Positions 8,387 to 8,736 of a stretch of 64,000 nucleotides of DNA are shown here, in pieces. Each line of letters opens with the position of its first letter. Within the stretch, counting starts at the first letter, position 1. The notes under the pieces are model-generated. The model was given only the letters and a program-made list of their open reading frames with translations. It ran no database searches and was not told where the DNA came from. Source of the DNA: Escherichia coli (lineage in GTDB: Bacteria > Pseudomonadota > Gammaproteobacteria > Enterobacterales > Enterobacteriaceae); assembly GCF_003334385.1 (NCBI RefSeq), contig NZ_QOWN01000015.1. One strand, given 5' to 3'. The position numbers were made by a program, and so were the translations under genes.

Positions 8387-8661
8387 TAACTCCTTTCGAG
8401 CACGCAGTCGCTGGTGCAGTGGCTGCGCGCTGCAAAATTATCTGCTGTTTTTAACCTTTTCTTAAAGATTATTTCACTTCTCTTGTGTCGATTTGGCTTT
8501 ATCACATAGAGCAAATATGCATAAAAATTTGTTAAATACCGTTTTTTAATCCGAGCTATAGTCTCAAACCCTGGCTAAAGTTATTCTTGCGATGCTTTTA
8601 TATAGCGAGCAGTGCTGGCCGGGAGAAAGTTCTCTTTTCTTACACCGCGCCGATAAAAAAT

Positions 8662-8677
8662 ATGCACGTTTATTGCA
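8662..8677 (+). promoter_or_regulatory. Candidate sigma-54-type promoter element (ATGCAC-N5-TTGCA), embedded in a palindrome, upstream of potF
   Basis: Sequence atgcacgtttattgca resembles the -24/-12 consensus TGGCAC-N5-TTGCW with mismatches in the GG; it also lies within the inverted repeat ATATGCA...TGCATAT (8660..8680). potFGHI is recalled as nitrogen-regulated. Confidence 0.3.
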
Positions 8678-8736
8678 TATCTTTCAGTGTGACAACTTTT
8701 GTTCGTTTGTTAACGAACTTTCAGAAGGAAAGAGAT

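Follow-up and report, generated by a model that had tools for sequence, protein, structure and literature searches.

We conclude that the 17 nucleotides at 8661-8677 of the window, which is the whole 64,000-nucleotide stretch of Escherichia coli DNA analyzed here, probably serve as a productive, NtrC-dependent sigma-54 (RpoN) promoter of the putrescine-uptake operon potFGHI, and we put the probability of this reading at about 75%. Others have shown that sigma-54 occupies this motif in vivo and that induction of potG and potI depends on RpoN and NtrC. To this we add deep conservation of the element together with its deviation from consensus, of a hairpin in the leader, and of an NtrC-type palindrome 1.2 kb downstream. 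The 17-mer is already catalogued, as site OS08 of a published map and in EcoCyc, so the sigma-54 promoter put forward as a candidate in an earlier note on this DNA was correct and already known.

Results

The potF promoter region

Between 8400 and 8800 the window is 100% identical to E. coli K-12 MG1655, which identifies an E. coli K-12-like chromosome, and window positions convert to NC_000913.3 by +885047 and to U00096.2 by +884270. The potF locus, with potF annotated there, was found in 5420 of 5426 complete E. coli genomes. The bases flagged in the earlier note, ATGCACGTTTATTGCA, are present on the + strand at 8662-8677, within the 350-bp ybjN-potF spacer that follows the ybjN stop at 8386, and the inverted repeat ATATGCA-N7-TGCATAT that it described occupies 8660-8680 (arms 8660-8666 and 8674-8680, spacer 8667-8673). 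The dyad exceeds that description, with 11-nt arms that are complementary at 10 of 11 positions (Table 1). As had also been pointed out, the -24/-12 spacing is canonical, with 10 bases between T8663/G8664 at the 'GG' positions and the GC at 8675-8676, and the -24 element is imperfect, reading ATGCAC instead of TGGCAC. T8663 stands in place of the first G, so that the sigma-54 GG is replaced by TG. The -12 element, TTGCA at 8673-8677, is canonical. The potF ATG is at 8737 and not at 8738. In the earlier note the start site had been placed about 45 nt upstream of the ATG; the rule of Bonocora et al. 2015, which adds 19 to the motif centre (window 8669), would put the exact start at 8688, a distance of that order with a predicted value of 49 nt.

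Table 1. Features of the potF promoter region and the potF-potG spacer, in window coordinates
Feature	Position	Strand	Basis or remark
potF CDS (putrescine ABC transporter periplasmic binding protein)	8737..9849	+	
sigma-54 -24/-12 element of potF, TATGCACGTTTATTGCA	8661..8677	+	identical to ChIP-seq site OS08; PWM 6.13 bits; conserved
Dyad symmetry 11-N7-11, AAAAATATGCA / TGCATATCTTT, 10/11 complementary	8656..8684	.	arms 8656-8666 and 8674-8684
Invariant dyad core, ATGCA-N7-TGCAT	ATGCA 8662-8666, N7, TGCAT 8674-8678		51 distinct orthologous sequences
Predicted sigma-54 start	8688 (NC_000913.3 893735)	+	motif centre + 19
Leader hairpin GTTCGTT-TGTT-AACGAAC	8701..8718	+	conservation and covariation
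NtrC-type palindrome CGCACCATTATGGTGCG, potF-potG spacer	9897..9913	.	candidate remote downstream enhancer
Conserved block of about 105 nt, 60-170 nt 5' of the promoter	8495..8598	.	
ARG-box-like TATGCATAAAAATTTGTT	8516-8533		within the conserved upstream block

Published binding and expression data

The 17-mer TATGCACGTTTATTGCA is row OS08 in Table 1 of the sigma-54 ChIP-seq map of Bonocora et al. 2015 (PMC4591121). That row gives a ChIP-seq peak at 892944 and a motif centre at 892939 on the + strand, 5 bp apart, with potF as the downstream gene at a distance of 49, a PSSM score of 6.829 and a fold-above-threshold (FAT) of 2; the site has the EcoCyc status 'P' (predicted promoter) and was classed as high stringency (PMC4591121). 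The published row and the window coordinates match to the base (centre 8669, start 8688, ATG 8737). A Salmonella potF amplicon was among 14 sigma-54 sites assayed by ChIP-qPCR, and robust association was described at all 14 (Bonocora et al.).

Nitrogen depletion raised potG mRNA 6.0-fold and potI mRNA 3.2-fold as measured by RT-qPCR (Shimada et al. 2021, PMC8743547), and its authors conclude that the induction needs both RpoN and NtrC (PMC8743547). A 2009 paper tabulates the regulators of potFGH as 'RpoN NtrC'. The control of potFGHI by nitrogen through NtrC that the earlier note had mentioned is supported by published work. Because RT-qPCR probed potG and potI and not potF, these measurements do not separate the potF promoter from a potG-proximal one. 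The original assignments of RpoN and NtrC to potFGHI reportedly go back to Zimmer and co-workers in 2000 and to Reitzer and Schneider in 2001.

The strongest RpoN-holoenzyme gSELEX peak (892632) was located in the ybjN-potF spacer (Shimada et al. 2021, PMC8743547). This peak is 307 bp from the potF motif, other known promoters being 3-72 bp from theirs, and Shimada et al. assigned it to TTTGCATGGTTCGTGCG inside ybjN, at 8255-8271 (PMC8743547); we therefore take it as support for the region and not for the potF motif. None of the 21 NtrC ChIP-seq peaks from nitrogen-starved cells falls between 847 kb and 1073 kb in the part of Brown et al. 2014 available to us. Our literature search returned no mapped potF transcription start, and among the rows listed in the Cappable-seq supplement there was no entry near 892958 or 893735.

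Strength of the motif in E. coli

A position weight matrix (PWM) was built from 132 of the 135 ChIP-bound sigma-54 motifs of Bonocora et al. 2015 (PMC4591121), with three motifs excluded: those of potF and of the nearly identical ygfT, and the serS site, which lies in the window. Scoring with such a matrix had been proposed in the earlier note, and the result spoke against the site: the potF 17-mer scored 6.13 bits, below the weakest training site (7.28), and ranked 123 of 127,968 window positions, with matches of this quality occurring at about 1.9 per kb. The deficit lies wholly at two positions, A for T at position 2 (-2.9) and T for G at position 3 (-7.1 bits), the second of which is G in 129 and A in 3 of the 132 ChIP-bound sites; with TTGG restored the potF site would score 19.6 bits by the PWM. 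When TGGCAC-N5-TTGCW was searched at up to two mismatches, 33 matches were found in the window compared with 45.1 +/- 6.7 expected. The two top PWM matches in the window (16.5 and 14.7 bits) are in no published sigma-54 list that we searched. The E. coli palindrome is marginal against dinucleotide shuffles of the intergenic region, with P of about 0.05 for the 10/11 arm match and about 0.13 for the perfect 7-nt arms. Judged by E. coli sequence alone, the potF element is not above chance, and it is ChIP-seq together with cross-species conservation that raises it above that level.

Conservation of the element

We surveyed 80 PotF loci from species-representative genomes, comprising 54 from Enterobacteriaceae and 26 from other Enterobacterales families. 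The element, written as ATGCAYR-N4-YTGCAT, was present in 53 of the 54 Enterobacteriaceae loci, with Yokenella as the exception, and in 0 of the 26 loci from Yersiniaceae, Pectobacteriaceae and other families. This distribution agrees with the PSSM conservation row in the S5 Table of Bonocora et al., where Citrobacter, Enterobacter, Klebsiella, Cedecea, Raoultella and Cronobacter retain the potF motif and genera beyond the family have lost it. Among complete E. coli genomes, 5398 of 5426 carry the site. The predicted start is 48-50 nt 5' of the ATG in most of the 53 element-bearing loci, the spacing from -24 to -12 is identical in all orthologues, and T replaces the first G of the -24 element in 53 of 53 loci.

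Across 51 distinct sequences, A2, T3, G4, C5, A6, G15, C16, A17 and T18 are invariant; these core positions served as the alignment anchor, and an unanchored PWM scan recovered the same element, with GG there in no locus. Y7, G8 (46 of 51), T11, T13 and T14 are strongly kept, and the information at flanking positions 21-35 has fallen to 0.2-0.5 bits. The spacer, YG.TT.TT, shows the asymmetry seen in sigma-54 sites such as that of pspG (GCATGATTCTTG), and preferences of this sigma-54 type argue that sigma-54 truly reads the site. A2, T3 and T18 are exactly the positions that complete the dyad ATGCA-N7-TGCAT. Their fixation is not explained by sigma-54, which prefers T and G at positions 2 and 3, and to our knowledge the published sigma-54 consensus has no preference at motif position 18. 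Since these three bases are fixed beyond what sigma-54 needs and complete the dyad, the non-canonical -24 appears to be an old, selected feature and not the product of decay. We infer that a second protein, acting as a dimer, also recognizes these bases and thereby preserves both the invariant T at -25 and the ATGCA/TGCAT dyad.

When the 600 nt preceding potF were compared in the 80 loci, no other conserved sigma-54-like motif was found. Two distal sigma-54 motifs of E. coli, CTGGTGCAGTGGCTGCG (8411-8427, 6.55 bits) and TTTGCATGGTTCGTGCG (8255-8271), were set aside, neither being conserved across these loci.

The potF leader

The leader hairpin (Table 1) spans +14 to +31 from the predicted start. 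Scored as an explicit structure, it has compensatory changes in 5 of 7 pairs and a covariation score that 0 of 500 shuffles reached, and 83% of cells pair compared with 28-41% when the partners are slid. Its stability is not unusual (z = 0.08), and RNAalifold predicted no structure on the leader. An Rfam search of 8300-10100 returned chance-level matches only, with none for the hairpin, and the small ORFs in the spacer offered nothing convincing. A conserved, covarying hairpin at this position is consistent with transcription beginning 5' of 8701.

An NtrC-type site between potF and potG

The palindrome CGCACCATTATGGTGCG at 9897-9913 is 31 nt 5' of the potG GTG (9944) and about 1.2 kb downstream of the potF promoter. 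In vitro, NtrC gave a 95% gSELEX peak (894130) between potF and potG (Shimada et al. 2021, PMC8743547), and the palindrome coincides both with this peak and with the 'potG' probe of Shimada et al. that was shifted by NtrC. Upstream of potF, an NtrC-type site at up to three mismatches was found in 0 of 80 loci, E. coli included. At the same threshold the palindrome is present in 45 of the 53 loci with the promoter element and in 0 of the 27 without it, a co-occurrence that is confounded by phylogeny, so that the Fisher test result (P = 1.5e-14) should not be read as a real probability. It is a perfect consensus in two species, and the background expectation is 0.013 per segment. A second sigma-54 promoter before potG was considered in E. 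coli and rejected, the best match at 9700-10050 scoring 4.7 bits; TGGTGCG...TTGCA before potG was also rejected, with a spacing 3 nt too short for sigma-54.

The simplest reading of the palindrome is that it would act as a remote downstream enhancer of the potF promoter, via looping. NtrC sites are known to act at kilobase distance and from downstream, an observation attributed to Reitzer and Magasanik in 1986. At the RNA level the palindrome would fold into a 7-bp hairpin after potF, whose outermost pair covaries (T..A / C..G), and it may have a role in the mRNA.

Discussion

Promoter activity and alternative explanations

In the mechanism that we propose, sigma-54 RNA polymerase would bind upstream of potF as a closed complex, through the canonical -12 (TTGCA) and the deviant -24 (ATGCAC), and the deviant -24 would make this complex a weak one. 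Under nitrogen limitation, phosphorylated NtrC would remodel the closed complex to an open complex, and transcription would then start near 8688, 49 nt before the potF ATG. Standing against the promoter reading are the missing first G of the -24 element, PWM and PSSM scores below those of nearly every other bound site, and the low occupancy (FAT 2). The absence of NtrC-type sites upstream of potF, the NtrC ChIP-seq peaks as far as they were available to us, the potG and potI focus of the RT-qPCR, the remoteness of the gSELEX peak and the RpoS dependence of potF in EDL933 also count against it.

Matches of such quality to the consensus or the PWM occur about twice per kb, as they would if the potF element were a chance resemblance with no function, but a ChIP-seq peak 5 bp from the motif contradicts this explanation, as do a core that stayed unchanged in 53 of 54 Enterobacteriaceae loci while its flanks diverged, and the presence of the site in 5398 of 5426 complete E. 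coli genomes; we regard chance resemblance as very improbable. We also consider it quite unlikely that sigma-54 binds here in a poised or repressive closed complex, without the site being a productive potF promoter, and that potFGHI is transcribed from elsewhere, be it an upstream sigma-70 or sigma-S promoter, transcription running on from rimK-ybjN or an NtrC-dependent start close to potG. A sigma-54 binding site need not be a promoter, as Bonocora et al. emphasize (PMC4591121); occupancy at potF is low (FAT 2), and Shimada et al. propose repressive RpoN sites (PMC8743547). potFGH was strongly RpoS-dependent in EDL933 (52-, 18- and 4-fold; 2009 paper), the NtrC site adjoins potG and is not upstream of potF, and RT-qPCR covered potG and potI only. 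An unproductive complex is, however, harder to reconcile with our scan of 8300-8800, which found no sigma-70-like promoter on the + strand, or with the region before potG in E. coli, which has no correctly spaced sigma-54 motif (best 4.7 bits). The distance from the element to the ATG is moreover fixed across genera, and expression falls in the order potF > potG > potH, as would suit a promoter located 5' of potF. We favor a productive sigma-54 promoter.

The earlier note had allowed that the palindrome could instead be an operator, and this suggestion was strengthened by the invariance of the dyad in 51 distinct sequences. It is possible, if tentatively so, that a dimeric or hexameric regulator uses the palindrome as an operator, either as the main function of these bases or alongside the promoter, with ArgR as the best candidate. 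This would be compatible with sigma-54 binding at a dual-use site, where bound ArgR would exclude the sigma-54 holoenzyme when arginine is plentiful. The ATGCA-N7-TGCAT geometry is that of the inner half-sites of tandem ARG boxes (ATTCA-N7-TGAAT), the artJ operator in the same window has ATGCA-N7-TGATT at its box junction, and A2, T3 and T18 stayed invariant while flanks 21-35 drifted. A conserved TGA(A/C)AAAATATGCA upstream forms with the motif an ARG-box-like 18-mer that overlaps the -24. This left box has 2-6 mismatches in 16 (mean 4.3) compared with 8-10.5 in neighbouring registers, and at most 4 mismatches in 35 of 53 loci, although the use of ATGCA as alignment anchor forces four of the matches; the E. 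coli left box is the worst, with 6 mismatches and a 1-nt insertion. The second, right box is at random level (8.1 mismatches), and a two-box ArgR operator (wnTGAATwwwwATTCAnw twice, 3 bp apart) was rejected on the failure of this box. The spacer YG.TT.TT, asymmetric and of sigma-54 type, also counts against an ArgR operator.

In published occupancy profiles, sites for ArgR, Lrp and ArcA were assigned to the potF promoter, the ArgR signal disappeared in an argR mutant, and Lrp ChIP signal was found there under all nine conditions tested. potFGHI is also a predicted member of the ArgR regulon in one taxonomic group, which may not include E. coli. The annotated ArgR site may, however, be the upstream box at 8516-8533, and the published sites for Lrp, ArgR and ArcA probably lie within the strongly conserved block at 8495-8598. 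An NtrC site was rejected as the identity of the promoter dyad, which spans 15 bp and not 17, with no match at up to three mismatches at 8640-8700. The consensus sequences of NsrR, CytR, PurR, Nac and AtoC were compared by hand, and none appears to fit both the spacing and the inner positions. The 11-1-11 repeat of NsrR, AAGATGCATTTnAAATGCATCTT, matches at about 14-15 of 22 positions by hand count and has the same core spacing, whereas its inner TTTnAAA contrasts with the YG.TT.T at the inner positions of the potF dyad in all genera.

Implications

For annotation nothing is gained by re-deriving a catalogued promoter. The potF site is useful as a calibration case, in which a site that fails both consensus and matrix tests is bound in vivo. 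A deviant -24 held invariant with a dyad, and an NtrC site conserved downstream of potF, would be of specialist interest if confirmed. Together they suggest a way in which a sigma-54 promoter could stay deliberately weak, have its bases in common with a repressor and rely on an intra-operon enhancer. The full combination, a dual-use -24 kept by purifying selection as a dyad operator for a second regulator and a remote NtrC enhancer 1.2 kb downstream, is a speculative proposal that we hold to be rather unlikely; if true, it would represent a natural bacterial enhancer acting from inside the operon that it controls.

Comparison with known systems

We compared the potF promoter with the sigma-54 promoters of the Ntr regulon at glnAp2, glnHp2, glnK, nac, astC and argT. 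Like these, it has canonical -24/-12 spacing, a TTGCA -12 element, a short leader and sigma-54 ChIP occupancy, and it precedes a nitrogen-scavenging transport operon with published RpoN/NtrC-dependent induction. It differs from them in its -24 element (ATGCAC and not TGGCAC) and its PSSM score (6.8 compared with 9.5-11.7), in having its only NtrC-type site 1.2 kb downstream and none upstream, and in showing no NtrC ChIP-seq peak in the part of Brown et al. 2014 available to us. Apart from potF, the ygfT site (Bonocora OS32, TATGCCCGTTTATTGCA) alone among the bound sites has AT at motif positions 2-3. Its core is identical to that of potF at 17 of 18 positions, including the T after TTGCA, and its occupancy is likewise low (FAT 3), but its left dyad arm is broken (ATGCC), it has no ARG-like sequence upstream and it is poorly conserved across genera. 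The tandem ARG boxes of artJ/artP in the window share with the potF dyad the ATxCA-N7-TGxAT spacing and an ATGCA half-site, whereas at potF one can recognise the left box only, the distal half of the right one being absent. The NtrC site TGCACCA-N3-TGGTGCA and the potF promoter dyad both have TGCA...TGCA symmetry, which spans 15 bp at potF (TGCA-N7-TGCA) and 17 bp in the NtrC site (TGCA-N9-TGCA).

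An NtrC-type palindrome accompanies the potF promoter element

The potF-potG spacer carries a consensus-like NtrC-type palindrome (Table), and a published NtrC gSELEX peak falls on it (PMC8743547). The palindrome is kept in 45 of the 53 Enterobacteriaceae loci that have the potF promoter element, a sigma-54 motif with a non-canonical -24, and in 0 of the 27 loci that do not. As RNA, the same sequence would form a 7-bp hairpin 3′ of potF. At Citrobacter PotF loci L003, L005, L006, L007, L008 and L039, the right half of an NtrC-type palindrome is followed by TTATTTGCA at the correct spacing, giving a sigma-54 motif immediately upstream of potG, about +1200 from the potF ATG, that scores 12-17.5 bits (for example, CTGGTGCGTTATTTGCA). 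In E. coli, Enterobacter and Klebsiella, the corresponding spacing before potG falls short by 3 nt.

Conserved sequences flanking the potF promoter

The upstream block shows near base-for-base identity across Enterobacteriaceae and in most genera includes a 10-bp perfect palindrome, GGCTATAGCC. It also contains ARG-box-like sequences at fixed offsets, approximately -133 and -189 relative to the box overlapping the -24, and the Lrp, ArgR and ArcA sites of potF are probably located here. ARG boxes elsewhere in the window, which by the known layout of the art locus would belong to the artJ and artP promoters, gave the ARG-box pattern an internal positive control. A search of Rfam returned no family matching the leader hairpin.

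Features in the window and at the ygfT region (L082); scores are from our own weight matrix, built on 132 ChIP-bound sigma-54 sites (PMC4591121)
Feature	Position	Strand	Sequence	Remarks
Weak sigma-54-like motif	8255-8271		TTTGCATGGTTCGTGCG	near ybjN end; TG for GG, as at potF
Weak sigma-54-like motif	8411-8427		CTGGTGCAGTGGCTGCG	near ybjN end; 6.55 bits
Upstream block, ~105 nt	8495-8598		TGCATAAAAAATTGATAAAAGGCGTTTTTT...GGCTATAGCC...CTGGCTACAGTTATTCTTGCG	upstream of potF promoter
Leader hairpin	8701-8718			predicted potF 5′ leader; conserved, compensatory base changes
NtrC-type palindrome	9897-9913		CGCACCATTATGGTGCG	31 nt upstream of potG GTG
ARG boxes	15598-15636 and 18675-18760		AGTGAATTTATATGCAAT, ACAGAATAATTATGCAAT, ATTGAATACTCATTGACA	1, 2 and 3 mismatches, respectively
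Sigma-54 matrix match	21144-21160	-	CTGGCGCATATGATGCA	14.66 bits
Sigma-54 matrix match	45767-45783	-	ATGGCGCGAATTCTGCA	16.45 bits
Sigma-54 matrix match	54820-54836	+	CTGGCCTCGACTTTGCA	within serS; 13.35 bits
ygfT sigma-54 ChIP site	NC_000913.3, about 3030970-3031000	-	TAATATATGCCCGTTTATTGCATCGCG	upstream of ygfT

Other sigma-54-like sequences and variants of the potF element

The top two weight-matrix matches of the window, ATGGCGCGAATTCTGCA and CTGGCGCATATGATGCA, are both absent from the main tables and the searched supplementary text of Bonocora et al. (PMC4591121), which argues that matrix score is a poor predictor of in vivo binding here. Within serS, CTGGCCTCGACTTTGCA corresponds to IS10, one of the intragenic sites in the published sigma-54 ChIP map (PMC4591121). 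Shimada et al. (PMC8743547) assigned their strongest RpoN-holoenzyme gSELEX peak to TTTGCATGGTTCGTGCG; a scan of the upstream regions of 80 loci found no conserved counterpart of this motif or of CTGGTGCAGTGGCTGCG.

Among relatives, the clade of Kluyvera, Pseudocitrobacter and their kin (loci L015, L018, L024 and L041) has an extra canonical sigma-54 motif, TTGGCGAG-N4-TTGCAT (~16-17 bits), located 130-255 nt upstream of the potF ATG and 5′ of the conserved non-canonical element. In Salmonella enterica subsp. diarizonae (L010) the element reads AAAAGGTATGCACATTTCAGGCAT, with a predicted start ~52 nt upstream of the ATG; it has lost its right dyad arm together with the -12 TT, but a GG gained 3 nt upstream allows a second register, AAGGTATGCACATTTCA, whose -12 is similar to the TTTCA of the glnH site. 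The ygfT site is identical to the potF core at 17 of 18 positions and is, besides potF, the only bound site with AT for TG at motif positions 2-3.
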